From positions 96,288,001 to 96,352,000 of the forward strand of contig NC_086107.1 of the NCBI RefSeq assembly GCF_963921235.1: a stretch of 64,000 nucleotides of DNA, in the 5' to 3' direction. Below the pieces are notes generated by a model. It had not been told where the DNA came from, searched no databases, and saw nothing but the letters and a program-made list of their open reading frames with translations. The position numbers and the translations under genes are program-made. The DNA is from Mobula hypostoma (lineage: Eukaryota). Positions 16,283 through 55,000 of this stretch are shown here, in pieces; position 1 is the first letter of the stretch, and the number at the start of each line of letters is the position of its first letter.

Positions 16283-17194
16283 ACACGACTCCCTTGTCCA
16301 TTCGTCCCCCCCCCCGCCCCATCCCTTCCCACCGATTTCCCTCCCGGCACTTATCATTGTAAGTGGAACAAGTGCTACACATGCCCTTACACTTCCTCCC
16401 TCACCACCATTCAGGGCCCCAGACAGTCCTTCCAGGTGAGGCGACACTTCACCTGTGAGTTAGCTGGGATGATATACTGCGTCCGCTGCTCCCGATGCGG
16501 CCTATATATTGGCGAGACCCGACACAGGCTGGGAGACTGTTTCGCTGAAGACCTACGCCCTGTCCGCCAGAAAAAGCAGGATCTCATAGTGGCCAAATAT
16601 TTTAATTTCACGTCCCATTCCCATTTTGATATGTCTATCCATGGCCTCCTCTACTGTAAAGATGAAGACACACTCAGGTTGGAGGAACAACACCTTATAT
16701 TCCGTCTGTGTAGCCTCCAACCTGATGGCATGAACATTAACTTCTCTAACTTCCGTTAATGCCCCACCTCCCCCTCGTACCCCATCCATTATTTATTATT
16801 ATTATTATTATATACATATATATATTTTTCTCTTTTTCTCCCTCTGTCCCTCTCACTATACTCCCTGCCCATCCTCTGGGATTCCCCTCTCTTTCTTTCT
16901 TTCTCCCTGGGCCTCCTGTCCCATGATCCTCTCATATCCCTTTTGCCAATCACCTGTCCAGCTCTTGGCTCCATCCCTCCCGCTCCTGTCTTCTCCTGTC
17001 ATTTTGGATCTCCCCCTCCCCCTCCCACTTTCAAATCTCTTACTAGCTCTTCTTTCAGTTAGTCCTGACGAAGGGTCTCGGCCTGAAACGTCGACTGTAC
17101 CTCTTCCTAGAGATGCTGTCTGGCCTGCTGCGTTCACCAGCAACTTTTAAGTGTGTTGCTTGAAATTCCAGCATCTACAGATTTCCTCATGCAT
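16283..17194 (+). mobile_element. Penelope-like element 3' part (GIY-YIG plus pseudo-LTR)
   Basis: ORF 16202..16759 with CKWNKCYTC and IYCVRCSRCGLYIGET; pLTR closely similar to 7889-8137; possible TSD ACATGC(A/T)TCTCT at 16271 and 17195. Confidence 0.9.
17061..17096 (+). ncRNA. Minimal type I hammerhead ribozyme
   Basis: Same sequence as 8040-8075. Confidence 0.85.
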
Positions 17195-25199: not shown

Positions 25200-26250
25200 T
25201 GTAGATACTAGGGAATTGGTGATAAACATAAAAGCCTTTTCCTGATCTGCCTCCTCCAGAGGGGGCTTCCCTCCTTTGAGGCCTTTATCGGAGCCGGTAC
25301 TGCTAAGAATCCTTGTATGAAACCACAGCAGTTGCTGCTGAAAGCACAGCCTCTCTTCACCATCCCCACCCAAAAGCAGTGGATTATAATGGTGCACGTG
25401 TTTAATCTGTACGTGCCTGTGGTGGACGTCCTAACCCACTTTGCCCATTACGTAGAGGGCGTAGGAAACTGTGTGGACATGAAGGACAGGCTGGGGATCT
25501 GGACAAGCAAGTACCAGGTCAAAGCAAAGCTGAGAGTGGACTCCAATGACTCCGTCATCCACCCTCCCTCAGGCTTCGTCATCGGAAGGAACTGTGGCTA
25601 CGTGGTGTACACTGGGCAACCCAACTGCAACAAGGCCGAGGGCCACCAGACAAAGGACTGCACACAGGCCAAGTCCTGCAAACTGTGCAGTCAGGCAGGC
25701 CACCTGACCAGGGCCTGTCCGAGACGTGCTGGCACCTACACGCAGGTGATCAGGGGAGGTGCTGGTAACCCAGCAGAGTTAGATGCACCCGCCACCTGTG
25801 CCTGGCACCACGGTAAACACCACCATTGAGGAAGGTGCAACCATCTCAAGACCCCACACCCCCTTGCAGAAACTCTGGCCCCGCCACAAGACAAGGAGTC
25901 GTCCATGGAGGAAGGGAGAGCCGAGGGAAAAGAAGGCTGGAACCTAGTGACGGGCAAACAAAAGAAGCATCAAAAGGCCCCGCCTATACGACAGATGTCA
26001 GAGCAACAGAAGGAGAACCCCAAAAAACAGGCAGGGGAGCACACAGCTTACGGCAACGTGTGCGTCAGAGAGGAAGGTGGAGCAGGAGGCCAGCAGCACC
26101 TGCAAAGAATGCGTCAGGCAAAGAGACAGGACAGAACCAGAGAACAAAAGAAAATGCCACACCTTTGACAGTGCACTGGCAATGGAGAAATTTGTGCAGG
26201 AGCTGAAGGACTAGAACTTGGAAGCTGCGGGCAAGTGAGACAGTACAGCA
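25200..26250 (+). pseudogene. Tx1-clade ORF1 (gag-like CCHC knuckles) remnant
   Basis: CKLCSQAGHLTRACP; paralogous to 33737-35079. Confidence 0.8.
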
Positions 26251-27416: not shown

Positions 27417-29004
27417 CAGGTTTCCTCCGCCATCTGAAGGTACAGCGTTCCTAGGAAACGATTCGTAAGCCGGAATGTCGGAAAGTGAAGAAGCAGTTAC
27501 CATTTATTTTTATGGGAAAAATTTGTGAGCGTTTGCAGACCCAAAAAATAACCTACCAAATCATGCCAAATAACACATAAAACCTAAAATAACAGTAACA
27601 TATAGTAAAAGCAGGAATGATATGATAAATACACAATCTATATAAAGTAGAAATACTTTTCTACAATCATTGCCGCACTGTTCTCCGTAGCGAAAATCTC
27701 ACGCAAGCGCTCTCAGCAGAAACACGGTGCAAGTGCTCTTGGCAGAAACACTCTCTCCAGTAACCTTTAAGCTATGAAGCTGCCAAATCATACCAAATAA
27801 CACATAAAAATACACAGCCTATATAAAGTAGAAATAATGTATGTACAGTGTAGAATCACTTACCGGAATTGGGAAGTCAGCGCCGAGCACACTGATGATG
27901 ATGTGTTAGGCTGAGTCATTGGAAGCTGGGGTGGTGTAGTGGTGTAGTGGTCCCTGACCTCCGGGCAGCAAACTGATACTGATCCACGTAGAATACAGTG
28001 GTAGCCAGGATGCACCCAGCGCATCTTTAAGAAAAAAGCTGAAATAAACAAGCTAATTAATTAGGTGCTGCCCGGCACATAATTGTCGGCCCAGATCAGA
28101 GGTGGCGCAATCGGCAATCGCCTCTGATCTGGGCAGACATTTACGTGCCAGGCTGCACCTAATTAATTAGGATGTTTATTTCGTTTTTTTCCTTAAAGAT
28201 ATGTTGGGTGTGTCCCGGCTACTGCTGCATTCTCCGCGGCCCGGGGGTTGGGGTGGTGGGACACTGGGGTGTCATCTCGTCGTCTGTCCTTGATGTCGAA
28301 GGTCGAGGCTGGTTGTCTGCTGTGGCTGATGTGGGAGGCTTGAAAAATGACAGTATGCTTGACTGCTTAGCCTTGTGTATTTTTCTATCATACATTTCTT
28401 TGTAAGCACTCAAACCATCCTGCAAATATGCCCTAAACCTACGTAAGTCGTACTTTTCTGCAATCATTGCAGCAAAAGTCTCATGCAGTTGCTTCATGTT
28501 CAGTTCCTGGAGGACTTCACTTTCGGTCCGTTCGCTACTGCATTCGGTTTCGATTGTTATCCTTTCCTCTTCCAAATGCATCAGCTCTTCATCTATCAGT
28601 TCTTGGCCATGAGATGCCAAAACCTCTTCGACATCATCTTCGCCAACTTCCACAACCCAAACTCACTTTGTCCTTACTTCATTCACCACAATCGAAATGC
28701 TTGATTATGTCTAGTTTTACACCTTTACGAGCTCTTTTAGGCTTTTCCGATACCTTAGAACTCATCTTGTTAACAGCTGTACACAGGCACGTGTTTAAGC
28801 AATGCCAGCTAGAATGCAGTTCCTGGGAGGAGCTTGGCTGCTCGGGGGACGCGCTGCCTTTTTTCACACGCCGCCTTTTATCGCACACTGCCTTTTTTCA
28901 TAACAGTGAAAACACCTTCTGTTAGCGAAAACAGGTAACTAATGTAGGTCTTTCGTAACAGAGAGGTTTCTTAAAGCAAACATTCGAAAAGTGGGGGACA
29001 CCTG
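27417..29004 (-). mobile_element. Non-autonomous Tigger/pogo-like DNA transposon
   Basis: TA TSD (27415-16, 29005-06); imperfect TIRs CAGGTTTCCTCCGC / GTGGGGGACACCTG; HTH start MSSKVSEKPKRARKGVKLDIIKHFD joined to C-terminal DVEEVLASHGQELIDEEL...KQSSILSFFK; no DDE core seen. Confidence 0.88.
27991..28232. repeat. Long imperfect inverted repeat (~110 bp arms) inside the Tigger-like element
   Basis: 27991-28102 pairs with 28120-28232 (e.g. CTAATTAATTAGGTGC...CCCAGATCAGAGG / CCTCTGATCTGGG...GCACCTAATTAATTAG). Confidence 0.88.
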
Positions 29005-32094: not shown

Positions 32095-32592
32095 AACGCA
32101 CACGCTGATGCGATTAGCGAACTGCAGAATGCACACCCTGATAAGACTGTTTATTGTCGCCGGAGATTTCAACCATGCGAATCTCAAGTCAGTGCTCCCC
32201 AAATTCCATCAACATCTGGACTTTGCAATGAGATGGGCAAACGCGTTGGACTTTGTTTATACAAACATCCCTGCCGTGTACTAGGCGGAGCCCCGCCCCC
32301 ACCTCGGTTACTCAGACCACATCTTTGTTATGCTAATTCCAGCAAACAGACGGTTCGTCAGACGCTCCGGACCAGTTCTGAAGCAGGTGAAAATCTGGCC
32401 AGCAGGAGCCATCTCTGCTCAAGACCGCTTTGAGTGCACTGACTAGCACATGTCCAGGGAGGCTGCAACCGATGGTGACTCCACCAACTTAAGAGGAGTA
32501 CATGGCATCAGTGACTAGCTACATCACTTGTTGGGCAAAGGAGAACATTCAGCCAGAGACTCATTCCACCGAGATGCAACACTGAGCGTCAT
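32095..32592 (+). mobile_element. Rex1/Babar-type fragments (endonuclease piece plus 3' ORF piece)
   Basis: DAISELQNAHPD...VAGDFNHANLKSVLPKF; 32528-32592 matches 55701-55766. Confidence 0.72.
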
Positions 32593-32617
32593 CAAGTGTA
32601 GTTTCTGTTCTTAGCAG
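32591..32617 (+). other. U2 snRNA-like fragment; second, more diverged copy at 33542-33568
   Basis: ATCAAGTGTAGTTTCTGTTCTTAGCAG vs U2 ATCAAGTGTAGTATCTGTTCTTATCAG (U2 recalled from memory; 25/27 match). Confidence 0.75.
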
Positions 32618-32636
32618 ATCGGAAGGCGGAGGAGAA

Positions 32637-33530
32637 GAGTCAGCTGGTCGTTGCCGGCATACTTGTCCTATGTATCAAGGTTCTTCCAGGAGAACGCCTT
32701 TGACCACAGGGCCATCAGGCAGTGGTCGGCACGTAGTGTCCTACAGGCACTGCAGGAGAAGGACGTGATGGACACAGTGGCTTGGTTCCCTGAGCAGACC
32801 GTCCAGTTCATCTGGAAAAATGCCTCATCGCCAGATCTCACCAACAGGCACCAAGACCTCGCCTGGCTGGCGGTGAGAGGGGCCCTCCCAGTCAGAGCCC
32901 TCCTGTACGCCTGGAACGTCTTCTCCGCACCCCACTGCCCACGGGAGGACTGCAGTGAGGAGCAGTCTGTGACCCACCTCTTCGCACACTGTCATTTCGC
33001 AAAGAGGGTGTGGAGGAGGATGGACGAGATAGTGTCACGTTTCATCCCCAGCAGCTGCGTAACAGAGGACTCTCTGATCTACGGGCTGTTCACGGGGACG
33101 CACACGGAGACCAACATCCAGTGCTGCTGGCAGATCATCAACTCGGTGAAAGACGCTCTTTGGTTGGCCTGAAACTTGATGATCTACCAGCACATGGAGA
33201 TGTCCGTGGGAGAATGCTGCCGACTGGCACATTCTCAGCTGCAGGAGTACGTGCTGAGGGACGCACTGAAACTCGGTCAGCCACCGCAAGGGCCCGTTGG
33301 GAAAGGACCACGGTATAGGTTTCTTCACCCACGGGAGTGAGAAGGGTCGGGTGGCGGGGAGTATACGCCTCAACAATGATGTGGTACAATGATCTGGAAT
33401 GCCACGTGGGTGGCCATAAATATGGATATGTACTGACTTTAATGGAAACGTATGTAAAGAATGGAAAGTTATTGAATACTTTATTGTATATATTTATTTT
33501 TGAATAAAGTATATTTTGAAATTAAAAAAA
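32637..33530 (+). mobile_element. 5'-truncated Tx1-clade LINE 3' end
   Basis: DLAWLAVRGALPVR...CPREDC...HLFAHC (zf-RVT-like); AATAAA at ~33503 and A-tail. Confidence 0.88.
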
Positions 33531-36500
33531 CATTGAGCGTCATCAAGTATAATTTCTGTTCATACCAGATCGGAAGGCGGAGGAGAACAGTTCGCGCTGA
33601 CGCAGTGGTGGACCCTAATGCTGATTGGCCTCCAATCTAACACCCCATACCAGTGACGACAGCAGTGTGGAAGATGGCATCAGAGAGCAGTGCATTGGCT
33701 TGAAGCCCGGGGATCAATAACACTGTCAGGCTGACAGTGCGAGACCAGAACGGGGGCACCGGCTTCACCCGAGAGACCTTCATCCGGAAGGTCTTGATGG
33801 AGTGCTGCAGATTTACGCCCGACGACATCTGTTGCTTCCAGGATTTCGCGGGCTTCTTAGATGTCACCTTCCGGCAGGCTGCAGGGTGGCAGAAGCTGTA
33901 CCAGCAGCTTCAGCTGAAGGGGACAGAGGCACCGCTGTCGCTGCTGAAAGCACAGGCCCTCTTTGCGACAGCTACCCAGCAGGAACGGACAATCATGCTC
34001 CAGATGTTCAACCCGTACGTGCAAGTGGTGGACGTCCTTACAATCCTCGCTCGGTATGTGGAGAACGTAGGAACTCCAGCGGACGTGAAGGACAGACTGG
34101 GAATCTGGAAAGCAAGCGGCAGGTCAAGGTGAAGCTGAGGTTGGACTCCAGCGGCGGCGTCATCCACCCCCCCTCCGTCTTCGCCATCGGAGGGAACCGA
34201 GGGTACACGGTCTACGCGAGGCAACCCAGGGTGTGCCGAAACTGCGGCAAGGCGGGGCACATCGCAGCCCAGTGCAGGATGGTGATGTGCAAGAACTGTA
34301 AAACCGAGGGCCACCTGACCAAAGACTGCACGCAGGCCAAGTCCTGCAACCTTTGCGAACAGGCTGGCCACCTGTACAGAGCCTGCCCAGAGCGTGGAGG
34401 CACCTACGCACAGGCGACCAGGGGAGGTGCTGGCACCGAAACGGCCCAGGCAGGTTTGGACGTACCCGCCAGCGCTGCAGACGAGGCACCCGACAGGGCG
34501 GACGATGAGACCAGGGAGGAAGGTGCAAGCACCCCAAAGCTCGCCACCCCCGTGCAGACCTTCCAGGACCAGCCAAACGACGAGCAGGAGTCCATGGAGG
34601 AGGGGAGAGCCGAGGCGGAAACCGAATGGAAGGTCATGAAACGGAAAAAGACCCAAAAGGCGGCGGCCAAGCGACAGAAGGCGGAGCAACACAAGAAAAG
34701 GGCAGGGAACCACACAGCCTCTGGTACCCTGTCCTTTTCAGAGGAGGAAGGAGTTGGGGGAGGCCAGCAGCCCCAGCGGAAGAAGCGGCTGGCAGAACAG
34801 GTGGAGAGGAGGAGAGAGGAGGGGGAAAGTCTGCTGGCCACCCCCCAAGTACAGGAGGCGGAGAGCAGCAGACACACCGAGCTCCGGGAATCCGGGAGCA
34901 GAGCCACGGCTGGCACCCAGCAGCCGGAAGGCGAAGCAGCCCGGGAAGTCAACAACTCCCCTGGGCCCAGAACCAGAACTGCCACACCCGGGGGAGTACT
35001 ATCTGCAGTACCTGAGCCCACAGGAGGTGGAAAACTTCACAAAGGCGGTGGGCATGAAGGCTCAGGACTGCAAGGGTGAAGACGGACAGCAGCCGAAATA
35101 AAGGACTTACAAAGACGGCAGACCTTAAATTGGTGTGCTTGAACGTGCGCAGTTTGAAGAGTACTGGGCGATGCGTCAGCACGCTCCAGTACCTGGACAC
35201 TGTAAAGGCCGACGTGACCTTCCTCCAGGAGTGCGAACTACCATACCTCCGTAAATACCAGAGGTGGTCACGGTGGTGGAAAAAACGGTTTCTCTGTGTG
35301 GTCGGGAAGCAACGATTGTCGCGCTTCCGGCCTGGGGATTCTGCTGCGGGGAGGCAACTTCTCAATCACCCAAGTTAAAGAGGTGGTTGCGGGGCGCCTC
35401 CTGGTAGCAGACGTCAAATACCGGGGCACTCCGCTCCGGCTGATCAACGTGTGTGCCTCCCCCGTACGGAGCGAGCGGCTGGCCATCTTCGAGCAGCTCC
35501 CACAGCTGCTGGTGACGTCCCAGCCGGTCGTTCTGGCCGGAGACTTCAACTGCACCATTGATGCAGCTGGAGGATCCGGCAGCGCCGACGGCAGGCTGGA
35601 CAGTACCTCCAGACTCCTGAGGGAAATGGTGAAGACAGCCAAGCTGCGCGACGCCTTTGGCACCCCACAGGTGGAGCACAGCCACAAGCCACCTGGACAC
35701 GATCGGACGGCTCAGCCCGCTCCCGGATTGACTTCCTCTTCCTGTCAGAGCCCCTCACGGTCAGGTCCACCGACATCACGCCGGTGTTCTTCTCTGACCA
35801 CTGCCTTCTGAGAGCCACCTGTCTCTTACGGGAGGACCAGAAGGCAGGCAGGGGGACGTGGAAGCTGAATGTTAAGTTGCTGACCCTGGACGAGCTGACA
35901 GGCTCCATCCGTTCCTTTGGGTCGGGTAAGACTCAGGGAAGCGACAGCTTACCGGCTGAGTTGTACTCGGCTCTGTGGAACTGGATGGGCCCAGACCTGC
36001 TGGAAGTGTACAATGCTATGCTTCTGGCTGGCAGCATGTCAGAGTCCATGAGGAAGAACATCACCCTCATCTACAAGCAGAAGGGGGAAAGGGAGGACAT
36101 TAGAAATTGGAGACCCATCTCTCTCCTGAATGTGGACTACAAGATCCTGTCTAAGGCTATCGCCAACAGGGTCAAGTCTGCTCTGGGACAGGTGATCCAC
36201 CCGGACCAACCCTGTGCTGTACCGGGCAGGAAGATCTCAGACAGGTTCGCGCTGCTAAGGGACACCATCGCCTACGTGCAGGACAGGGGGGTGGACGCCT
36301 GCCTGGTCAGCTTGGACCAGGAGAAAGCCTTCGACAGGATATCGCACACGTACATGGCGGACTTGCTCTCCAAAGTGGGATTTGGGGAGGGAATCCGGAA
36401 TTGGATCAGACTGCTCTACACAGACATCCGTAGTGCAGTCCAGGTCAACGGTTGGGAAACAGACAGCTTCCCCATCAGGCCTGGAGTCAGGCAGGGCTGT

Positions 36501-37083
36501 CCACTTTCCCTTGTCTTGTTTGTCTGCTGCATAGAACCCTTTGCGGAAGCCATCAGGAGGGATGAGGGCATAAGAGGGGTGACGCTGCCAGGAAGTGGTG
36601 GAACCCAAGCAAAAACCTCCCTGTACATGGACGACGTCACCGTCTTCCGCTCTGATCCGAGGTCAGTTCGCAGGTTGATTAGCATCTGCAAACAGTTCAA
36701 GCTAGCATCGGGGGCCAGGGTCAACCGCACGAAGAGCGAAGCCATGCTCTTCGGCAAATGGCCCAACCGATCCCGTGTCCCCTTCGCCATCAGGTCTGAC
36801 CATGTGAATGTGTTGGGGATCTGGTTTGGAGGGGCTGCCGAGTGCAACAGGAACTGGCAGGAGCGGACTGCCAAGGTGAAACAGAAACTGGGACTGTGGG
36901 GAGGGCGCTCCCTGTCGATAACGGGCAAGAACCTGGTCATCAGGTGTGAGGTGCTCTCAGGGCTGCTGTACTTGGTGCAAGTGTGGCCCGTCCCCTGCTC
37001 CTACAGCTCGGAAATCACCCAAGCTGTTTTCAGATTCGTCTGGGGATCCAAGATGGAGCGGGTGAGATGGACCATCATGCACA

Positions 37084-37730
37084 GGAATTGGATCAAACTG
37101 CTCTACACAGACATCTGCAGCGCAGACAAGATCAACAGATGGGAAACAGATTGCTTCCCCATCAAGTCTGGAGTCAGGCAGGGCTGCCATCTCTCCTGTC
37201 TTGTTTGTATGCTGCATAGAACCCTTTGCTGAAGCCATCAGGAGGGATGAGGGCATAAGAGGGGTGACGCTGCCAGGCAGTGGAGGGGCCCAAGTGAAAA
37301 CCTCCCTGTACCTGGACAACGTCACCGTCTTCTGTTATGATCCAAGGTCAGTTCGTAGGCTGATTAGCATCCGTGAACAGTTTGAGCTGGCGTTAGGGGC
37401 CAGGGTCACCCGCACGAAGAGCAAAGCCTTGCTCTTCGGCAACTGGCCTGACCAATCCAGCATCCCCTTCACTATCAGGTCTGATCACATGAAGGTATTG
37501 TGGATCTAGTTAGTGGAGGCTGAGGCGTGCAATAACAATTGGCTGGAGCAGCCTGCCAAGGTAAAATAGAAATTGGGACTGTGGGGAGAGTGCTCCCTAT
37601 CGATAACGGGGAAGAACCTAGTCATCAGGTGTGAGGTGCTCTCAGGGCTGCTGTACTTGGCGCAAGTGTGGCCCGTCCCCCACTCCTGCAGCTTGGAAAT
37701 TACCCGAACCTTCCTCATATTCATCTGGGT
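37084..37730 (+). repeat. Diverged direct duplicate of the Tx1 RT segment 36397-37045
   Basis: Both start GGAATTGGATCA.ACTGCTCTACACAGACATC and run colinearly to TTC.TCTGGG. Confidence 0.88.
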
Positions 37731-37848
37731 AATCAAAGATGTTTAGCTTTGTTAATCAATTATTTGGTAATTTAATTCCTTATTGTACATATTGACATGT
37801 TGACTTGATTACTTTAATGTATTTTTTTTGTTGATCTTAATAATAATC

Positions 37849-40800
37849 GGACTTCCGGTAGAGCTCATGGAGTGAAGTCGTGTTCTTGACTCGCTTCATT
37901 ACCTCTGAGTTTTTTCCTATGATCTGCTACATTTAAGCTAACCATTAAGGCACCAGTTTTTATAATACCTTGCAACAAATTGTGTTTTTTGATATTTGGA
38001 TGTTTTTAAGGTCTGCTATGTCTAAGAACGGGAAAGATAGTAAACCTCCGGTTAGACCGAAAGTTACCGCTCCTTCTCCGACTGAACCACCGTTAACTTT
38101 GAAAGCTATATCGGATCTGATTCAAACGGAAATTTCAACTACTATAACGGATCTGATTCGTGTGGAAATTTCAACTAAACTGCAGAAAATTATTGATGTA
38201 ATCGATAAAATGGAAACATCTGTCACGGAACATCAGACTGCTATATCTAATCTTCAAAAATCCACACAACAAAATGAACTCAAGATGGGGAAAATTGAAG
38301 AAACAATTACTGTAATGAAGAAAAAACTTGACTTTCTGACTTTTAAAAACTCTTGACTTAGAATGCAGAATGCGACGACAGAATATTCGAATTATTGGTA
38401 TTTGTGAAGCTGCTGAATCTGATGACCCTATAAAGTTTTTTTCTCAACTTTTAAAAGATGCATTTCCAACCTTATTTCCTGACCAACCACCACTACTGGA
38501 TCGGGCTCACAGAGTCCCATTATATTCGTCTAAGTCAGATAAACCTCGGCATGTTATTTTACGATTTCATTATTTTCAAGACAAGGAGAAATTACTTCGA
38601 TTCGCTCGACCTAAAGGTTACATTGATTTCTCGGATTTTCGTCGGGATCAACGTGTCCGTTACAGATCTGTGATGTCGGAACTCTACAAGATGGATTTAA
38701 AACCAGTGTTGCTTTATCCCGCACGTTCAAAGATTCGTTCGCCTGATGGGTCTTCCCGTTTTTTCGACTCTCCATCGGATGCCCAGAGTTACCTGGATCA
38801 ATTTTCACCTTCAACATCTTAATCGCAATTATTAAATCATCTCTGTTTGATCGGAGGCAGTTAATCTGTTGGGTTTAATTTTTTTCGCTTTATGAGGGCA
38901 GAAAAGTTTTTTTCGGTTTAATTAACATGGTTGCCAAACTTTTTTTTGACTGCGTCATTCCTTTCTTTTTCCCTGGGGATTCTGGGTGTCTATTCCCTCT
39001 GCATCATTTTACGTATTTCCTTTGAGGCCTTAAACTTTGTGGCTTTCAAACGTACTTTTTGTAGTTTATCTCATTTTCTTGTTTAATGATAGGGTCTGTT
39101 GTTCGTTAACGGTTTTCTTTATATTTACTTGTTTTTTCTTTGTATTATATCGTGTTCGTCTTAATCGGTGTACTTTTTTTTATTCCTCTACTGTTTTATA
39201 ACTTTAGCTGATCCTTTTATATATACACTTTTTTTTAGTGAGCGTCTATCGGAAGTCATGGGGGTAGTTCTAGTGCTCGCTTCTTTCTGGCTGGTCTATT
39301 TTAGATTTAGCTTTGGGGTCACGGGGGGCAGTGGGAGGGGCTTCACTTTTTAGTTTTTTTCTTCTTGGGCTACTTACATTACCGAAGTATTGGTCGCGTG
39401 CTCCTTCCCGTTATCTCTTGTTTGTTTTGTTCCCTTTCCGGGTTCGTGGGTCGAACCTATTGTCAATCCTTTTTTTTGCGGGTTGACTTTAGGGTTTATG
39501 GAGTCTACTATTAATTTTGTCTCTTGGAATACTAACGGCCTTAATCATCCAATTAAAAGGAAAGAAGTTTTTAAAGTATTCCAGAGACTTAAAGCACATG
39601 TCTTATTCTTACAAGAGACCCATGTGCAGAGGGGGGACAGACTATGTTTTTTTTAATTTTGGAAGGGTCAACACTTCCATTTGAATTCTAACGCTAAGAT
39701 TCGAGGATTCTCTATTTTTATAGATCCCTCAATCACTTTTGTACAACACGATATTATTTCTGATCCAAATGGTAGATTTCTATTGGTTAGTGGTCTACTT
39801 ATTAATAAAAAGGTAGTTTTGGTTAACATCTATGGTCCTAACATGGACTGTCCGGAATTTTATAAATCATTATTTAATCTGTTCCCGAATTTGAATGAGT
39901 TTTCACTAATCTGTGGCGGGGATCTTAATACTTGTTTATCCCCAGCTTTGGACCATTCGGCTCCTTTACGGACCTTACCCAATAAATCTGCAACCTTGAT
40001 TAATTCATTCCTTTCAGATTCCAGGTCGACGGACATTTGACGTTTTTTGCATCCTCAGGAAAAAGATTTTTCTTTTTTTTCACATGTTCACCATTCCTAT
40101 TCAAGAATTGGTTATTTTTTTTTATTGACTCTCATTTTATTTCTTCAGTGGTTAAATGTGAATATGACTCTATAACCATTTCGGATCATGCTCCACTTAA
40201 GCTTTCTATTAAAATTCAGGCCAATACACAAAATAATAGACAATGGCGTTTTAATTCGCTGTTGCTTCAGGACTCAGATTTTGTTAACTTTATGAATGAA
40301 CAGATTGATCTCTTTTTTACAATCAACTATACAGAAGATATTTCTATGAACATCCTTTGGGATACTTTTAAAGCTTATATTCATGGTCAGATCATCTCGT
40401 ACTCTGCTGCTTTGAGGAAGAGGTTGAAGCAGGAGGAGCTGGTTATTGTGGACAAGATTAAGGAAATTGATAAGAAATATGCTACAGCTCCCTCTGAGAA
40501 GTTGTATAAACAAAGAACTAAACTTCAAATGGAACACAGTTTATTACTTTCGTCCTCGATTACAAATCAATTAATGAAAACAAGAAGCGAATTTTATGTA
40601 CATAGTGACAAAGTTGGTAAACTGTTGGCTAATCAGTTGAAGACTAATTATACTAAATTTCAAATTAATCAGATTTATAATCAAAAAGATCAACTGATAT
40701 TTGATCAAGCTGAGATTAATCAACTCTTTTTTGATTTTTATTCCTCCTTATATCAATCAGAGTCTCCACAAGACTCTAAATATATGTATGACTTTTTAGA

Positions 40801-43644
40801 TAACCTAGATTTCCCTAAGATTTCACAGGATATATCTTCTATGCTAGACACTTCCTTTACCACTGATGAGATTAAGAATGTTATTTTCTCTATGAACCCG
40901 GGGAAAGCTCCTGGCCCTGATGGGTTTACCGTGGAATTTTATAAATTTTTTGCATCCTCATTAATCCCTTAGTTATTTAGGGTTCTGGAGGCCTCATTAA
41001 AAGTTGGTAAACTTCCCGAATCCTTCTATAGAGCATTGATCTCTTTAATATTAAAGAAGGATAAAGATCCTGCTCAATGTGCATCTTATAGACCAATATC
41101 CTAATTAAATGTTGACTCTAAAATTTTTTCTAAATTATTAGCAAACAGATTAGAAAAAGCACTTCCTTATATTATTTCGGAAGACCAAACGGGTTTTATT
41201 AAAGGTCGTTACTCTTTTTATAACATTCACACACTGTTAAACATTGTTTATACTCCCTCACAAAACGATCCTGCGTGCATCATTTCCTTAAATGCTGAAA
41301 AAGCTTTTGACAGAGTCCAATGGCCTTATTTATTTAAGGTGCTTGAAATGTTTAATTTCAGCTCGAAATTTATATCCTGGATCAAATTGTTATATCATTC
41401 TCCTATGACCTCAGTTCGTACTAACTCTTTAAGCTCACCTTTTTTCCTTCTTTCTCGAGGTACTAGACAAGGTTGTCCTCTTAGTCCTTTATTATTTGAT
41501 ATTGCATTAGAACCTCTTGCAATTGCTATTCGAGAATCTCCAAATATTATTGGGATAACTCGGGGCCTAAAATCCCATAAAGTAACACTCTATGCTGATG
41601 ACTTACTTTTATATATTTCTAATCCTCAAAAATCTATCCCTGCTGCTTTAGATTTATTAGCATAATTTAGTCTTTTTTCCGGTTACAAGTTAAATCTCAG
41701 TAAGAGTGAACTTTTCCCGATTAATAAGCAACTTCCCTTGTATCAGAACCTTCAGTTTAAATTGATTAATAATCATTTTTCATATCTTGGGATTAAAATT
41801 ACCTGTAAACATAAAGATTTATTTAAGACTAATTTCCTACCCTTAATTGATCATATTACTCAACTTTCATTTAAATGGTCTCCATTATATTTAACTTTGG
41901 TCGTATTAATGCGGTTAAGATGTTTATTCTGCCAAAATTTTTATATGTATTTCAGGCACTACCGACTTTTGTTCCAAAATCCTTTTTTGACAAAGTTGAT
42001 TCTAAAATTTCTTCATTTATTTGGCAACATAAATACCCGAGACCGAGTAAAATACATCTACAGAAAGCTAAGAGAGATGGAGGTTTGCCATTACCTAACT
42101 TTAGATTCTATTATTGGGCAATTAATATTCCACACATGAAATTTTGGGTACTTGATCAAGATACACTATCCATTCCTAAATGGGTAGTATTGGAATTACA
42201 ATCTGCTCAAGGTTATGCACTTGGCTCCATTTTAGGTTCTTCTCTTCCTTTTGATTTGAAACGCCACAAACAGGTTTGTAACCCGATAGTTAAATATACC
42301 TTACATATTTGGTTTCAAAAATTTTTCGATCTTAATCAATTTGGGCTTGTGATTCCTATTTTAGGCAACATATTCTTTCTCCTCTCTTCCACGGACCGTG
42401 CTTTTCAAATTTGGAAGACTAATGGTATTTCACGGTTTTTGGATTTATTTTTAGATGGTTCCCTTATGTCTTTTGAACAATTATCTAACAAATATAACTT
42501 ACCAAGAATACACTTTTTTCAGATATCTCCAAGTTAGAAATTTCCTAAGTACTATACTGTCTTCCTTTCCAACGATACCTCCTACATATATTTTAGATAC
42601 TATAATTAACCTTAATCCATGTCAGAAAGGTGTAACGGCTATTATTTATAATACTATTATGAAACTTAGGAAATCTCCATTCGATAAGATTCAGTCAGAT
42701 TGGGAAAAGGAATTGGGTTTTATTATTTTGGCAGATGACTGGGCGCATATTTCACAACTAGTCAATACTTCCTCTATCTGTTCTAAACACTCCCTAATTC
42801 AATTTAAAGTTGTCCATAGAGTATGTATGTCCAAAGATAAATTAGCTCGTTTTTATTCTCATATTAATCCTCTTTGTGACAGATGTCATGGGGAGATAGC
42901 CTCCTTAACTCATACGTTTTGGTCCTGTCCTACTCTGGAAACTTTTTGGAGAGACATTTTTAATATTATTTCAAAGGTATTGAATATAGATATCTTTCCC
43001 CATCCTATTACTACTATCTTTGGATTACCTAAAATTTCCAGTAATCTTTCTCCTTCAGCCCGTAGAATGATTGCATTTCTTACTTTAATGGCGAAAAGAT
43101 GTATTTTACAACATTGGAAGGAGATTAATGTTCCAACTACGTTCTTTTGGTTTTCCCAGACGATACTATGTTTAAATTCAGAGAAAATTAGAAGTAATCT
43201 TTATGATTCTTCAGCTAAATTTGAACAGACCTGGAGATCTTTTATTCAACATTTTCATTTAATGTAATTTTTTTTCTCTCTCGGTCCATATTTACATTCC
43301 CTTCTTGCTTTTTAACTGTTTTTAATGGAGGTCGGGTTTGAGGACATGATTGTTTTAAGTTGTTTAACTCTACTTGATTCCTAGTTAGCCCATTGCATTG
43401 CTTTGCTTTTTAGATTAGTTGCACAGTGGGGTTTCTTTGGGGTTTTTTTTTCCTTTCCTTATTGATATGTATGAAAATTAGTATACTATTATATTACCTT
43501 GTTATTTTATATTTAAACTGCACTGTTTCTACTAATTTTTTTTTGTGTATTAATATTTCTTGTAAAGTTATAGTGCAACAGTGTATTAGTGCCTATAGGG
43601 TTTACCTTTTGCATACTAATTCAATAAAAAGATTTAAAAAGGAA
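37849..43644 (+). mobile_element. Full-length L1 with several stops and frameshifts
   Basis: GGACTTCCGG 5' end; ORF1 38018-38822; ORF2 39498-43267 (SWNTNG, SDHAPL, GTRQGCPLSP, LYADD, CDRC...H...C); AATAAA plus A-rich tail; 16 bp TSD GATCTTAATAATAATC at 37833-37848 and 43645-43660. Confidence 0.95.
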
Positions 43645-46081
43645 GATCTTAATAATAATCAATAAAAAAGATTTAAAATCAAAATCAAATATGGAGCGGG
43701 TCAGACGGGCCACCACGCACAAGTCCCTGGACAACGAGGGCAAGAATGTCCCGAGTCGCCCTCATCCTGATGAACAGCTTCGTGTGTGGCTACATCAGGT
43801 TGTGTGTGGAACCCAGGTATGTGGGCACCAAATACCACTATGTGCCCAGGTTCTACCTGTTGCCCAGGTTACGAAGGATGGGTCTGGCCCCACTCCCGCG
43901 CAACACCCCAGCCAGCTGGTCGTTGCCAGCATACCTGTCCTTCATAGAAAAGTTCTTCCAGGACAAGGTCTTTGACCACAGGGCCATCAGGCAGTGGTCG
44001 GCACGGAACGAGCTGCAGACACTACAGGAGAAGGACATGTTGGACACAGTGGGGTGGTTCCCCGAGCAGATTGTCCAGCTCATCTGGCAAAATGCCTCAT
44101 TGCCAGACCTCACCAACAGGCACCAAGACCTCGCCTGGCTGGTAGCAAGAGGGGCCCTCCCAGACAGATCCCTCCTGTAGGCCCGGAACATCGTCTCCGC
44201 ATCCCACTTCCCACGGGAGGACTGCAAGTGAGGAGAAGTCTGTGACCCACCTCTTTGTACACTGTGGGTTCGCGGAGAAGTTGCGGAGGAGGATGAAAGG
44301 GCTAGTGTCACGCTTCATCCCCAGCAGCTGCGTAACAGAGGACTCTCTGATCTACAGGCTCTTTCTGGGGACACAAAGACAGAGACAAATATCGGTTGTT
44401 GCTGGCAGATCATCAATTTGGTAAAAGGCGCTCATTGGTCAGCCCGAAACTTGATGGTTTGCCAGCACACAGAGATGTCCGTGGCAGGATGCTGCTGACT
44501 GGCACATTCTCGGCTGCAGGATTACGTGCTAAGGGACGCACTGAAACTTGGTGCAGCCACCGCAAGGGCCCGATGGGGAAGTAACACGGTTTAGGGTACT
44601 TCTCCCGTGGGAGTGGGAGGGATTGTGTGGTGGGGAGCATACCCCTTAACTATGCTTGTATTGTACAATATGAACCATCAGGCTGCCAACGTAAGTGGCT
44701 GAAATATTCAAACTGTCTGGAAAGTACTGGCCATGTCTACAAAGAATGTAGAATTGTTGAAGGATTTATTCTCGTCAATAATTTTGCGGCAAAGGAAGTT
44801 TATCTTTTGCACACAAGAAAATCTCATTGTGATCAGAAGACTGAGGGGAGGATAATTTGCTGATACAGGGGCGGAACCTCATGCTGACTGGTTCCCAATC
44901 AAAAACCCCTTTCCAGCGACTACAGAGGTGAAGAAGATGGCTGTAGATACTAGAGTGTTGTGGAAAAATCTCAGGAGTAGCAGACAGAATAGATCAAACC
45001 CATTCAGAGAATTGTTTCAGACTAAAGGTCTTTACTTATACATGATATCATGGAGAGCCTCCTTTCACCTAAGAGCGGTGCTTAGAAGCTCTGCTTTATC
45101 TTGCAGACCTGCTTCATTATATAGGCACAGCAAACGTGACTAAAAGCACTTAATAATAGCATTGCTTGACTGTAAACCTAGCACTAAATTTCGACAAAGA
45201 GTATGACCTTGAACTTAATACTAGATTTTCGACAAACAGGAGCATGACATAAGTATGGCGCCACTATGTTTTTATTTAGACTTTAGGAAGGATGTTTAAG
45301 ATTAAGATTTGCAAAGACCTTTAGCTAAATTCTAAGAGCATTCACAAGTGATTAGATTAACCCCTACATATCCAAAGAGTCTTAAATTCTTCCACAATTC
45401 CCTCCTTGTTGATCCTTTCAGGTCAACACTCCTCATGAGGTATTTGCTCCTCTTCCTCATGGGGGGGTTCATATCCCTCCAGAAAGGGTCTTTCTTTGCC
45501 AAGATGTACCTCCTCCCCCCACCAGTTTCACTTACTGCGCATTTCTTGCGCTCCTGATCTGGGAATTCGGCACCCTGTCGGACTGACAGTTAAGCAGCAG
45601 AGTGACAGCTCGAGCTTCAACAAGGAGACCTTCATCCGCAAGGTGTTGATCGACCGCTGCGGATTCGAGGTCGAGGATATCTACTGCATCCAGGAGTTCA
45701 GCGGGTTCTTCGACGTCACCCTCCGGCACACTTTGGGATGGCAGGAGCTCCTGCAGAACTTTCGGGAGAAGGGGAGTGAGGCACCACTCTGGTGGCTGAA
45801 GGCACAGCCCCTGTTCACTGCCCCCATCCAGAAGGAACGGATTGCAACAGTGCACATGTTCAATCCGTACATGCCTATGGTGGACGTCCTCACCCATTAC
45901 GTAGAGGACAGGAAACTGTGTGGATGTGAAGGGGACGTTGGGGATCTGGACAAGCAGCAGTAGGTCAAAGTAGAGTCCAACAACTCCATTATCTCCCTCA
46001 GTCTTCGCCATCAGAGGGAACCGTGGCTACATGATTTCGCTGGGCAACCCAGGGTATGCCACAAATGCAACAAGGCAGGAC

Positions 46082-48787
46082 CCTGCAAGCATAAGTGCTA
46101 CACCTGTCCCTACACCTCTTCTCTCACCACCATTCAGGGCCCCAATCAATCCTTCCAGGTGAGGCAACACTCCACTTGTGAGTCTGTTGGGGTCAGCTAT
46201 TGCATCCAGTGTGGCCTCCTCTACATCGGTGAGACCCAACACAGATGAGGGGACCGCTTCATCGAGCACCTCCGCTCCGTCCGCCACAACAGACAGGATC
46301 TCCCAGTTGCCACCCGCTTCAATTCTGCTTCCCCTCTCTGAGGCAGAACATTTTGTCCTTAGCAAGGGCCTCACTTTTGCCCCCCTCCGTCCACACCGCA
46401 GTGATTTCCGTGCCCGCCATGACGATGAACTCTTCTTCCGTCGACTACGTCACTGAGCCTACTTCTTTGGCAAGGATTCCCCTCCCCCTACTGATGACCC
46501 CTTCTCCCATCTTCAACCCTCTTCATCCTCCTCCTCCTGGACACCCCGCCCAGGCCTTCTACCTGCACTCGATCTTTTCATCTCCAACTGTCGCCAATAC
46601 ATCAACCGTCTCAACTTCACCACTCCTCTCTCCTGTTCCAAACTCACTCCCTCTGAACACACTGCCCTTCACTCTCTCCGCACTAATCCCAACCTCACCA
46701 TCGAACCCGCAGACAAAGGTGGTGTCGTAGTAGCCTTCCGGACGGACCTCTACCTCACTGAGGCCAAATGGCAGCCCTCTGACACCTCCTCTTACTTACC
46801 CCTGGAACAGGACCCCACCAAAAAACATCAAACCATTCTCTCCCGTACCATCACCGTCCTTATCAACTCCGAAGACCATCCATCCTCAGCCACTAAACTC
46901 ATAATTCCCACACCCCGCACTGCTTAGTTTTACCTCCTCCCCAAGATCCACAAGCCTGACTGTCCCAGTAGACCCATAGTTCCTGCCTGTTCCTGCCCAA
47001 CCGAACTTGTATCTGCCTACCATTTTGTCACCCATAGTTCAGTCCCTCCCCACCTACATCCGGGATACATGCCCTCCACCTCTCCAATAACTTCCAGTTC
47101 CCCGGTCCCGACCGCTTCATTTTCACTATGCATGTCCAGTCCTTATACACTTCCATTTCCCATCAAGAAGGCCTCAAAGCCCTCTGCTACTTTCTGGACA
47201 ATAGACCTCACCAGTTCCCCACCACCACCACGCTCCTCCGGTTGGCAGAACTGGTACTCACACTTAGTAATTTCTCTTTTGGCTCTTCCCAATTTCTTTA
47301 GACCAAGGATGTAGCTATGGGCACTCGCATGGGCCCCAGCTATGCCTGCCTCTTCGTTGGTTATCTGGAACAGTCTGTGCTCCAAACCTATTCTGGTACT
47401 GCTCGCCAACTTTTCCTTCGCTACACTGACGACTACATTGGTGCTGTTTCCTGCACCCATGCTGAGCTTGTCAATTTCATCGACTTTGCTTCTAAGTTCC
47501 ACCCAGCCCTCAAGTTCACTTGGTCCATCTCAGACCCTTCTCTCCCCTTTCTTGACCTCTCAGTCTCCATCTGTGGAGTCAGACTGTCCACTGACATCTT
47601 CTACAAGCCCACTGACTCTCATAATTACCTCAACTATACCTATTCCCACCCTGCCACATGCAAAAATGCTATTCCCTATTCCCAGTTCCTCTGTCTCTGC
47701 AGCATCTGCTCCCAGGATGAGGCTTTCCATTCCAGGACATCTCAAATGTCCTCTTTTTTTAAGGATCGTGGTTTCCCTTCTGCCTCACCTGCATCTCCTC
47801 CACTTCCCGCACTTCGGCCCTCACCCCATCCTCCCGTCACCACAACAGGGACAGAGTTCCCCTTGTCCTCATCTACCACCCTACCAGCCTCCGGATCCAG
47901 CACATTATCCTCCGCAACTTCCACCACCTTCAACAGGACCCCACCACTAAGCACATCTTTCCCTCTCTACCCCTATCTGCTTTCCGTAGGGATCATTCCC
48001 TCCGCGACTCCCTGGTCCACACGTCCCTCCCCACGGATCTCCAACCCGGCACTTATCCCTGTAAGCACCTGTCCCTACACCTCCTCTCTCACCACCATTC
48101 AGGGCCCCAAACAGTCCTTACAGATGAGGCAACACTTCACTTGTGAGTCTGTTGGGGTCATCTATTGCATCCGGTGCTCCTGGTGTGGCCTCCTCTACAT
48201 CGGTGAGACTTGACGCAGATTGGGGGACCACTTCGTTGAGCACCTCCACTCCGTCTGTCACAACAGATAGGACCTCCCCATTGCCACCCACTTCAACTCT
48301 GCTTCACATTCCCATTCGGATATGTCCATACAGGGCCTCCTCTACTGCCATGATGAGGTCAAACTCAGATTGGAGAAGCAACACCTCATATACCGTCTGG
48401 GTAGTCTCTAGCCCCTTGGTATGAACACAGAGTTCTCCAACTTCCGGTAATTCCCTCCCCCTCCCTTCCCCCATCCCAGATTCACTCTTTCCCCTCCTCT
48501 AGCTGCCTATCACCTCCCTCATGGTTCTGCCTCCTTCTATTACCCATTATGCTTTCCTCTATTCCTTCTTCACCTTTCCTGCCTATCCCCTCCCTGCATC
48601 CCCTCCCCCACCCCTTGATCTTTCCCCTTACTGGTTTTTCACCTGGAACCTACCAGCCATCTCCTTCCCACCTTATAGGGCTCCTGTCCCCTCCCTGTTC
48701 AGTCCTGACGAAGGGTCTCGGCCCAAAATGTTGACTGTTCATTTCCACCGATGCTGCCCGACCTGCTGAGTTCCTCCAGCATGTTGT
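46082..48787 (+). mobile_element. Near full-length Penelope-like element (partial upstream GIY-YIG repeat, RT, GIY-YIG, pLTR)
   Basis: LSKGLTFAP, PADKG, YLLPKIHK, MGTRMGPSYACLFVG, RYTDD, PFLDL, FYKPTD, VIYCIRCSWCGLLYIGET; 46095-46330 repeats 48061-48305; AGGAC at both junctions. Confidence 0.92.
48700..48737 (+). ncRNA. Degenerate hammerhead ribozyme, probably inactive
   Basis: CAGTC-CTGACGA-AGGGTCTCGGCCC-AAAATGTT-GACTG; the core GAAAC is mutated. Confidence 0.6.
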
Positions 48788-48914
48788 AGGACACATCGCA
48801 GCACAGTGGAAGGCAGAGGGCCACTAGACAAAGAACTGCATGGAATGTCAAGTGTCGCAACCTGTGCGGACAGGCAGGCCACCTGTACAGAGCCTGTTCA
48901 AGCCGTGCTGGCAA

Positions 48915-49901
48915 AAGACCTTCAGGAAGATTGAGCAGACTCTGGAGTGGTGGTACACTGTTCTACTGAGCAGCGACACCTGCACAAATATGACCTTCAT
49001 AGAAGAGTCATTAGAAGAAAACCTTTCCTGCGTCCTCACCACAAAATTTAGCATCAGAAGTTTGCAAAGGAACATCTAAACAAGCCTGATGCATTTTGGA
49101 AACAAGTCCTGTGGACTGATGAAGTTAAAATAGAACTTTTTGGCTGCAATGAGCAAAGGTATGTTTGGAGAACAAAACAGAGGGTGCAGAATTTCATGAA
49201 AAGAACTCCTCTCTAACTGTTAAGCAAAGGGGTGGATCGATCATGCTTCGGGCTTGTGTTGCAGCCAGTGGCACAGGGAACATTTCACTGGTAGAGGGAA
49301 GAATAAATTCAATTAAATACCAGCAAATTCTGGAAGCAAACATCATACCATCTGTAAAAAAGCTGAAGATGAAAAGAAGATGGCTTCCACAATAGGATAA
49401 TGATCCTAAACACACCTCAAAAGCCACAATGAACTACCTCAAGAGGCGCAAGCTGAAGGTTTTGCCATGGCCCTCACAGTCCCCTGACCTAAACATAATC
49501 GAAAATCTGTGAATAGACCTCAAAGGAGCAGTGCATGCAAGATGGCCCAAGAATTTCACAGAGCTAGAAGCCTTTTGCAAGGAAGAATGGGCAAAAATCC
49601 CCCAAACAAGAATTGAAAGACTCTTAGCTGGATACAAAAAGCATTTACAAGTTGTGATACTTGCCAATGGGGGTGTTACTAAGTACTGACCATGCAGGGT
49701 GCCCAAACTTTTGCTTCGGGCCCTTTTCCTTTTCTGTTATTTTGAAACTGTAAAATATGGAAATAAAAAAGTAATCTTGCTTAAAATATTAAAGAAATGT
49801 GTCATCTTTAACTTTATGCCTTTTGGAAATCTTTTACTCACTTTGCTATTCACAGTAACAGAAATTTTGACGCGGGATGCCCAAACTTTTGCAAGCCACT
49901 G
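48915..49901 (+). mobile_element. Tc1-family DNA transposon, 5'-truncated, with right IR/DR
   Basis: [57 protein letters not shown] repeated at ~49700 and ~49878; ends CACTG|TA. Confidence 0.9.
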
Positions 49902-52000: not shown

Positions 52001-55000
52001 GAGGGGACGTCACATGATGACGTAGGATAGAGACGTGGAAATCCAGCTCTCCCTTAAAAAAATCAGTAAAGTATCGTTTAAATAAAGAAAAGTTAATAAA
52101 TATTTTTTGAAAACTACTTTTAAACTACTCAAGATTATTTTAAGATATGCCTTTTAAATAGAAACAGAAGACGACTACTGTTTTGACAACACTGCAAGAT
52201 GGGAAGAAAAAAGGGCCTACTACGATGAAACCTCATGCTCAGGTTGGATCTCCTTTTGAGGAGACACACTTTGACTCCGGCGTTGAAGAACAGGAGGCAG
52301 CGGCAACGGCAGCAGTCTCTAGGAAGAAGAAACGGGAATCGCACATGCGTAAAGAAGCAGGCATGCGCAAATCGGTACAAGCCTAACTACAAGATCCGAT
52401 TGTCACTGAAAGTGAGAGTGATCTGGAGTTAGAATCAGATACCCTGGTGAATACAAATGAAGAAAAGGAGGAAGAAGAACAAGAAGAGATTAAAAGTAAA
52501 AAACATCGTGGAGACATAAGAGAGGCCTTAGTGCAAATAATGGCTGAATTAAAAGTAATAAAAACAGATGTTAAAAACATGAAGACTATGTTTGATAATG
52601 TTATGGAAAAAAAAGGAGAAAAGGAGAAAGTTAAAAAGTTGGAAGAAATAATGGAGGACACCAAAGATAGAGTGGACAAGATAGAAAATAATATCCTTGC
52701 CCGGACAACAAAAAGAAAATAGCTGTTGGAAAAAGTGGATGTGCTGGAAAATTTTAGTAGGCAAAGTAATATTAAGATTGTTGGTCTTAAAGAAGGTATA
52801 GAGGGGGAGGATCCAATAAAATTTTTCAAAGATGGATCCCGGAAATTTTGCAAATGGAAGAGGGAAATCGGTCAATTGAAATTGAACGAGCACATAGAGC
52901 TTTAAGACCAAAACCACAACACAACCAAACTCCGCGATCTATTTTAATAAAATGTTTAAGATACCAAGACAAAGAAAGGATTCTGCTGAAATCTGGAGGA
53001 AGACACACAGAGGATACAGAGGGGAATCAAAAAGGCAAGAGAAGAGGACCGGGTCAAGACAACAGAGACTTATGGAGAAGAGGAGTTATAAGCCGTGTCT
53101 CCCCTCTCTCATTATGGGCAATGTGAGATCGTTGGGTAATAAAATGGACGAGTTGACGGCGCTAGCCAGGAGTCAGAGAACATTTCTGGAGAGCAGTGTT
53201 ATGTGTTTTACTGAAACGTGGCTGCACGAGGACATACCCGACCAAAACGTTTCCATACTGTTCAGGCTGACCGGAATTGCACTGAGAGCGGTAAGCGTAA
53301 AGGAGGGGGGCTTGCTGTTCTGGTTAACAACAGATGGTGCAATCCTGGTCATATTATGATCAAGGAATGTGTTTGTAGCCCAGATATTGAACTTCTTGCT
53401 GTTGGACTCCGGCCATATTATTTGCCAAGGGAAATCTCACATGCAGTTGTGGTTGTTGTGTACATCCCTCCTTCTGCCAACCCGACGTCGGTGTGTAACA
53501 TCATTTACACTGTCATAGCCAGATTACAAACCCAGCACCCGAATGCCCTCATTACCATCTCGGGTGACTTCAACCATGTTACCATGGCTAGAGCACTGCC
53601 CAACTTCATGCAATATGTGAGTTGTACAACCAGAGGGGCGAGGACTCCGGACTTGATGTATGCTAATGTTAAGGATGCGTACAATTCCTCTCCCCTCCCC
53701 CCATTAAGAAGATCAGATCACAACCTGGTGCATCTCAAACCCTGCTACGTGCCTCTGGCGAAGAGTAAACCTGCAACCTCGAGGACAGTGAGGAAATGGT
53801 CGGAGGAGGCTTATGAGGTACTCCAGGGTTGTTTTGAGGTGACAGACTGGCAGGCACTCTGTGAGCCACATGGAGAGGATATTGATGGGCTCACAGAGTG
53901 CATCACTGGTTACATCAACTTCTGTGTGAACTACAATGTTCCAGCAAGAACTGTCCTTTGTTATTCAAATAACAAGCCATGGGTGACAAAGGACATTAAG
54001 GACATCCTGAATGCTAAAAAGAGGGCGTTTAGAGATGGAAATAGGGAGGAGCTGAGGGCAATACAGAGGGACCTGAAAGCCAGGATCAGGGAGGCTAAAG
54101 ACAGGTAGCTTGAGTGGAAGGCTAAAGACAGGAAGCTTGAGTGGAAACTCCAGCAGAACAGCATGAGAGAGGTCTGGAGTGGGCTGAGGACCATCACTGG
54201 GTTCCGGCAAACTAGCAACAGAGGAGCTGAAGGCAGTGTGGACAGGGCCAACGAACTTAACCTGCTCTGTAACAGATTTGACATTGTGGCCCCTGCCCAT
54301 CCCCCACATGATTCATCTGTTGTCGGCCCCCAATCAACACATACTGACTCTCCCCTCCTCACAGCCCCCACCCTGCTCTCATGACTACACTCCTTCCCCA
54401 CATGAAACTACCACGGTGGGCTTCACAGCTAAACAGGTGAGAAGACAGTTGAAACGTCTCCACCCAAGCAAGGCTGCAGGCCCGGATGGTGTCAGCACCA
54501 GGGTGCTCAAAGCCTGTGCCCCCCCCAGCTATGTGGAGTACTTCACCATGTCTTCAACCTGAGCCTGAGTCTCCAGAGGGTTCCTGTGCCATGGAGGACG
54601 TCCTGCCTTGTCCCTGTGCCAAAGACGCTGTGCCCTAGTGGCTTCAATGACTACAGGCTGGTGGCATTGACCTCCCACATCATGAAGACCCTGGAGAGAC
54701 TTGTTCTGGAGCAGCTCCGGCTTATAGTTAGGCCACACTTAGACCCCCTCCAGTTCGCCTAACAGCCCCGACTAGGAGTTGAGGATGTCATCGTCTACCT
54801 GCTGAACCACGTCTACGCCCACCCGGACAAGCCAGCGAGCACTTTGAGGGTCATATTTTTTGACTTCTCCAGTGCATTCAACACCATCCACCCTGCTCTG
54901 CTGGGGGACAAGCTGACAGCAATGCAGATGGATGCTTTCCTGGTGTCATGGATTATTGATTACCCGACTAGCAGACCACAGTACGTGTGCTGGCAACACT

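Follow-up and report, generated by a model that had tools for sequence, protein, structure and literature searches.

The 64-kb window described here (64,000 nucleotides of the Mobula hypostoma genome; assembly GCF_963921235.1, contig NC_086107.1, positions 96,288,001 to 96,352,000 of the forward strand, with all positions below counted from the first letter of this stretch) holds a decayed stack of long interspersed nuclear elements (LINEs) of the Tx1 clade, which come from several subfamilies and all lie on the plus strand. In one of them, termed element B, the 5′ leader is directly preceded by a 27-nt piece of U2 small nuclear RNA (snRNA), and the same U2 scrap recurs in a direct repeat that encloses a truncated second element, termed element A. 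The scrap is most likely a 5′ extension carried along from a parent copy that lay inside a U2 gene; in this reading it merely rides along, and no U2 RNA is made from it. As to the locus as a whole, we give about even odds to the history proposed below, that of a dead stack of LINEs of the Keno lineage, a U2-targeting group known from KenoDr1, Keno_Tn (AB111948) and Keno-1_SSa (Kojima and Fujiwara 2004, as cited in PMC4494074, PMC4640811, PMC6136364 and PMC4746887).

Direct Repeat and U2 Match

The two copies of the repeat lie at 32578–32640 and 33529–33591, both on the plus strand, the second directly after the tail of element A, and they agree at 57 of 63 positions, leaving 6 differences. The original prediction described a 59-bp duplication, and the duplication itself stands (54/59 between copies over that 59-mer), whereas its length has to be revised to 63 bp, of which the first 13–15 bp belong to another LINE. 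This host LINE is of a different, very abundant type, and its 67-bp fragment in front of the repeat (32526–32592, plus strand) breaks off at 32590–32592. The fragment is 94% identical to 55700–55766, in the 3′ part of a longer copy (54400–55990, plus strand) that encodes a reverse transcriptase (RT) with an FSDD motif and served as the reference for the uninterrupted site; this LINE is putatively Rex1/Babar-like. Contigs of three related organisms (organisms A, B and C, not to be confused with the elements) continue past 32592 into the host LINE, with 113, 256 and 10 loose ends, and each repeat copy is therefore composed of 13–15 bp of LINE, 27 bp of U2 (2 bp being shared) and 23 bp of Tx1 leader. 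A search of the window found neither the remainder of the host-LINE fragment nor a target-site duplication (TSD) for element B.

The U2 part corresponds to nt 26–52, the branch-point-recognition region, and the predicted 27-bp match was borne out in both places, at 32591–32617 (25/27) and at 33542–33568 (22/27), both on the plus strand, where A26 of U2 was taken from the U2 rows in S1 Fig of PMC4640811. Both copies begin at the same U2 position and carry the same change at nt 38, and nt 39 falls at 33555 in the second. On the left side, the scrap shares an AT microhomology with the host LINE at 32591–32592, and LINE sequence occupies the position of U2 nt 1–25. On the right side, the match stops at nt 52 and the Tx1 leader begins at the next base; the G that the original prediction set before the leader, in (G)ATCGG, is nt 52 of U2. 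A 20-mer of the leader has exactly two occurrences in the window, where 0.01 would be expected, and U2 nt 39–52 with at most two mismatches occurs four times against 0.72 expected, namely at the two heads and at two unrelated sites. The chance of matching a fixed 26-mer in at least 24 of 26 positions is about 1e-7 per window, a value calculated post hoc for a single target named beforehand as U2.

When a 71-bp stretch was compared with 4227 Rfam families by cmscan, U2 was the sole match, its model columns 27–52 aligning to 32592–32617 with 2 mismatches. By the standard of Rfam itself this match is weak, with an E-value of 1.9 and 10.5 bits where the gathering score is 46. A scan of 32300–33800 gave 2 chance matches with no U2 among them, and over the whole window no family reached its gathering score; neither a U2 gene, as had been foreseen, nor a U2 3′ half was found there.

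Tx1 and Probable Keno Affiliation

Element B consists of a 5′ untranslated region (UTR) followed by a broken first open reading frame (ORF1; 33569–35100, plus strand, likely ATG at 33674) with a ZCCHC3-type RNA-binding domain and zinc knuckles, and of a broken ORF2 (35124–37083, plus strand) that comprises an apurinic/apyrimidinic (AP) endonuclease with frameshifts, a deletion of about 90 codons, and the RT. Element A (32641–33530, plus strand) retains the last ~205 codons of ORF2 with the zf-RVT domain, a 3′ UTR, an AATAAA signal and an A-rich tail. These are the marks of a Tx1 clade LINE: an ORF1 RNA-binding domain with CCHC knuckles, an ORF2 that encodes an AP endonuclease, an RT and a zinc domain at its C terminus, and an A-rich tail. 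Pfam recognized zf-CCHC, RBD_ZCCHC3_2nd, RVT_1 and zf-RVT, with Exo_endo_phos below its cutoff (E 7e-5).

The RT of element B shares 53–56% identity with Tx1 proteins that are amphibian or unnamed, and 43% with BAD04856; the Tx1-type matches (43–56%) include “transposon TX1 149 kDa protein.” In both FastTree and IQ-TREE trees this RT is set apart from that of the L1 in the window and is nearer to Tx1 than to L1; among samples that include no named non-Keno Tx1, it joins a clade of amphibian Tx1 proteins with BAD04856 and BAC82621 (SH-aLRT 100 in IQ-TREE and 0.939 in FastTree). The FastTree set held 162 sequences (158 of 188 proteins, chosen for an alignment of 340 amino acids or more, plus 4), and the IQ-TREE set held 60 (56 of 281 proteins after 65% thinning, plus 4), with SH-aLRT values from the fast search. 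BAD04856 and BAC82621 were taken as Keno because AB111948 is Keno_Tn (PMC4746887) and BAD04856 and BAD04858 appear as neighboring pufferfish entries (PMC4889948, both in the passages cited). The link to U2 and Keno drawn in the original prediction is largely right, the RT lying in a clade with probable Keno proteins. Among the proteins returned by searches and cluster look-ups, none bears the name Keno, Kibi, Koshi, Mutsu, Dewa or Tx1L. The named proteins nearest to this RT come from Pleurodeles waltl (P0004, P0125, P0128, P0130 and P0131) and have runs of neighboring locus tags on a single chromosome, a pattern expected of a tandem array. Motif scans gave 0 loci in viral contigs and 0 in metagenomes, and a scan for related loci gave 3 distant relatives (31–36%) among 66 candidates, with no U2 nearby.

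Target-Site Geometry

Keno and Utopia 3′ junctions start at U2 nt 39 (PMC4640811; PMC6136364, in the passages cited). The U2 head described here ends 14 nt beyond this published Keno cut at nt 38/39, and for this reason the 5′ extension, one of the options in the original prediction, is the best account of it. A head ending at nt 52 would represent the 5′ side of an insertion at nt 38/39 with a 14-nt duplication, a length we deduce from the geometry. A 5′ part of U2 does stand before the 5′ end of the element, since nt 26–52 adjoin the leader. At the 3′ ends, the tail of A runs into the host LINE and the tail of a further element, B′, into sequence that is only loosely similar to U2 from nt 39, and the insertion does not lie inside a U2 snRNA gene.

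Contig depth in the relatives was used for boundaries only and not for copy number. In organism A, arithmetic on the depth table accounts for the depth of bin 33536–33579 by multi-copy contigs starting at 33554/33555, which is U2 nt 38/39 (summed depth ~300–312, single pieces 8–19). For this organism only, the arithmetic suggests that U2 nt 39–52 are common to many copies, nt 26–38 being beyond its resolution. The 3′ UTR of element A (33404–33491) is deep in organisms A and B and nearly absent in organism C (depth 14–44), a pattern that suggests a lineage-limited subfamily.

Anatomy of the LINE Stack

All elements listed below lie on the plus strand. Downstream of B, element B′ is represented by a second RT piece (37084–37741, 85% identical to 36397–37055) and by a second part (43683–44821) with an ORF2 end 84–87% identical to that of A, a 3′ UTR 67% identical to that of A, and an A-rich tail. 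The two parts are separated by a decayed L1-type LINE of ~5.9 kb (37742–43682) flanked by an 11-bp TSD (37731–37741 and 43683–43693, 10/11). At the joint between B and B′ (37084) the sequence steps back by 686 bp in ORF2, with 85% identity over the overlap, and the 3′ end of B itself is absent; this joint may stem from nested insertion combined with deletion, or from a switch of template from one family RNA to another.

Element C begins directly after the tail of B′ with a head (44822–44955) made of ~10 nt loosely like U2 nt 39–47, then a leader and 5′ UTR 69% identical to those of B, and pieces of its ORF1 follow downstream at 45572–46079 and 48810–48913. About 600 bp of sequence without assignment (44960–45570) lie between this 5′ UTR and ORF1. 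The ORF1 of C is split by a C/T-rich RT-like element (46080–48790), presumably Penelope-like, with related pieces at 7500–7900 and 16300–16800, and after the last piece of C the sequence at 48980–49500 looks like a fragment of a Tc1/mariner transposase. Upstream of the stack, an isolated Tx1 ORF1 fragment, termed piece D (25324–26120), belongs to another subfamily and is ~70% identical to B; a 119-bp inverted repeat (82%, 18-bp spacer) lies at 27984–28239.

Elements A, B′, B and C are different subfamilies because A and B′ are 84–87% alike in ORF2 against 67% in the 3′ UTR, and because B and C, ~70% alike, show a codon-position bias (p = 0.025, third position with the frame from 33674); the bias between B and B′ is not significant (p = 0.10). 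The same comparisons disfavor a single multi-jump event as the origin of the whole stack. Deletions are common within it, and both of the two Tx1 tails found in the window adjoin the head of another Tx1, 38 and ~10 bp ahead of the leader.

Proposed History and Rival Readings

We propose that a parent copy lay within a U2 gene, behind nt 52, after a cut at nt 38/39 and with a duplication of 14 nt, and would have been transcribed with the U2 5′ part ahead of it. Its RNA would then have been copied back as far as U2 nt 26–28 and joined, through the 2-nt AT microhomology, to the LINE fragment, which would leave B with its U2 head far from any U2 gene; at this step the junction is observed and the process presumed. 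Subsequently, a 5′-truncated A may have been primed 13–15 bp upstream of the head of B, the 5′ end of A being attached 63 bp downstream, within the leader of B. An end of host LINE, the U2 scrap and the leader start would thereby have been duplicated as one long TSD, a process we read from the observed anatomy. Subfamilies B′, C and D and an L1 accumulated in the stack, and all have decayed.

The original prediction of an unusually long TSD-like duplication around a truncated Tx1 is correct as to anatomy. Its interpretation as one long TSD is, for this step alone, a roughly balanced call, placed slightly ahead of a short TSD with a second head. A single long TSD accounts for the U2 start and the nt-38 change that both copies have in common, and it fits the 2–3 nt microhomology at the 5′ joint of A (32638–32640). 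Two separate insertions at one site with one truncation point are unlikely, because the copies share these features and because A-type tails have no common target. Long TSDs do exist but are rare, as in 1 of 25 insertions of ZfL2-2 in DT40 cells (PMC2666801, in the passage cited).

Several points weigh against the history proposed here. All five polarizable differences between the repeat copies fall on copy 2 (p = 0.06), although the two copies of a TSD would be expected to decay at the same pace; the spacer of 13–15 bp between the tail of A and the breakpoint has the size we deduced for a normal Keno TSD; and truncated L1s tend to have short TSDs in vivo (PMC2912911, in the passage cited). 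The 5′ joint of Keno itself at nt 52 was deduced by us and not taken from a published junction or TSD length, and in organisms B and C the same depth arithmetic puts the starts of contigs no earlier than 33565/6, past nt 38/39, although their heads may have been assigned to copy 1 and hidden under the depth of the host LINE. The tree sample was gathered by similarity and holds no named Kibi, Koshi, Mutsu, Dewa, Tx1L or Tx1-Mar, BAD04856 and BAC82621 are probable Keno proteins by accession order alone, and the comparison of family copies with readable flanks draws on this single locus.

The TSD points lead to a reading with the same origin of the U2 head, in which the TSD is only the 13–15 bp of host LINE and A is a second headed element that lost ~4 kb internally, either after independent insertion at the regenerated site or after tandem duplication via the short TSD. 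Besides the spacer length and the ancestral letter kept in copy 1 at 5/5 polarizable sites, it is favored by the frequent deletions in this stack and by the tandem SINEU-3 copies around a TSD described in PMC4494074. Yet under it the same U2 truncation and the same nt-38 change would have to arise twice, or 15 bp would have to suffice for recombination; A-type tails show no preference for the host LINE in the contigs of the relatives; and no link between the leader and the ORF2 end appears among the joints listed (15 per table). We hold it to be somewhat short of even for this step alone, and a serious if minority possibility, by either route, as an account of the locus. A different origin for the scrap is improbable, be it acquisition from free U2 snRNA when B inserted, through a template switch or the joining of RNAs, or an older U2 retrocopy fragment beside which B inserted. 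Repeated 5′ addition of U1 and U2 by template switch has been proposed for crocodilian SINEU (PMC4494074, in the passages cited), but the switch points of SINEU-2 vary by up to 22 nt (same source), whereas the scrap here ends at U2 nt 52 and contigs of organism A start at nt 38/39, both in line with Keno geometry, and no U2 3′ remainder follows the stack in the window. A resemblance to U2 by chance, or an artifact of assembly or adapters, is already disfavored and very improbable. The Rfam E-value speaks for it, as does the stretch of ~10 nt across the U2 end and leader start (33568–33577 and 32616–32625), which resembles the start of an Illumina adapter, but it has to face a 25/27 match at the Keno position, 6 differences between the repeat copies, and a leader and 5′ UTR that are covered by contigs of the three other organisms and have a 69% homolog at C. 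The adapter likeness is a coincidence, because the leader runs on into the 5′ UTR in those three organisms; reads at the leader start could be biased by adapter trimming.

The original prediction went further and saw a hint that the family re-targets its own U2-like leader. In its strongest form the endonuclease would recognize the U2-like head, and each ectopic headed copy would seed a tandem array. The abutment of both tails on Tx1 heads and the joint between B′ and C, loosely like U2 nt 39–52, are points in favor of such self-retargeting, as is the stacking of different subfamilies on one strand. This joint aligns at 11 of 15 positions, a score reached by 0.4% of window positions. However, once the ATCAG that the joint has in common with the leader is disregarded, ~7% of positions score as well, and its start was chosen by eye, an off-by-one start giving nothing; as a Keno TSD the joint is only suggestive. 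Moreover, the tail of A meets the host LINE at a point 26 bp upstream of the Keno site. The 3′ flanks of the A subfamily in two related organisms have no common sequence (agreement 0.36 over 38 and 42 contigs). Self-retargeting is no more than a possibility, and array seeding by such a landing pad is unlikely. Slightly more doubtful is the broader picture of a Keno-lineage family between two lifestyles, with sources transcribed from U2, most offspring scattered without sequence preference, and a portable U2-head landing pad founding multi-subfamily arrays outside U2 genes; its boldest form, held jointly with it at the same low level, would make A the first short U2-headed, internally deleted, SINEU-like family member seen outside crocodilians.

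Comparison with Known Systems

Like Keno, the element belongs to the Tx1 clade, has two ORFs with AP endonuclease and RT, carries a head that ends 14 nt past nt 38/39, and places its RT in the clade of probable Keno proteins. Unlike Keno, it lies outside a U2 gene, no tail is followed by clear U2 from nt 39, A-type flanks in the relatives are mixed, and its RT is closer to amphibian Tx1 (53–56%) than to BAD04856 (only 43%). Utopia uses the same U2 site, and reptile families of it have weakened specificity with U2-like flanks outside U2 genes (PMC4640811, in the passages cited), but it encodes a restriction-like endonuclease in a single ORF, in contrast to the AP endonuclease and two ORFs found here.

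A U2-headed Tx1 has already been published, Tx1-11_Crp, and the locus is one decayed locus of this described kind. It is one of the crocodilian Keno-related Tx1-Mar elements with U1 or U2 heads outside snRNA genes, the others being Tx1-2_Crp, Tx1-2B_Crp and Tx1-4_AMi with U1 (PMC4494074). Titles and abstract openings (a survey that left aside Repbase and subscription journals) gave no report of a U2-headed Tx1 in cartilaginous fish. As the text of PMC4494074 describes them, the Tx1-Mar elements share with ours a Keno-related Tx1 body, a U2-derived 5′ head outside U2 genes, nesting in another transposon and frequent tandem arrangement; in this comparison by text description, not by head coordinates, the host here is a fragment of an RT-encoding LINE rather than Mariner-N4_AMi, and no preference for it is seen. 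The elements SINEU-1/2/3 combine, in a short unit, a U2 scrap with an unrelated 3′ part and an A tail (PMC4494074, in the passages cited), and A would be similar under the short-TSD reading, but its body is coding Tx1 and a second copy with the same joint was not found among the joints listed. The locus fits the idea that U2-targeting LINEs obtain their 5′ leader from the gene they occupy and can carry it elsewhere, which would be a plausible route to the crocodilian U2-headed Tx1 and to SINEU, whose transcription is left open in PMC4494074. If it is true that ectopic heads attract insertions, this genome would allow a test of how site-specificity relaxes.

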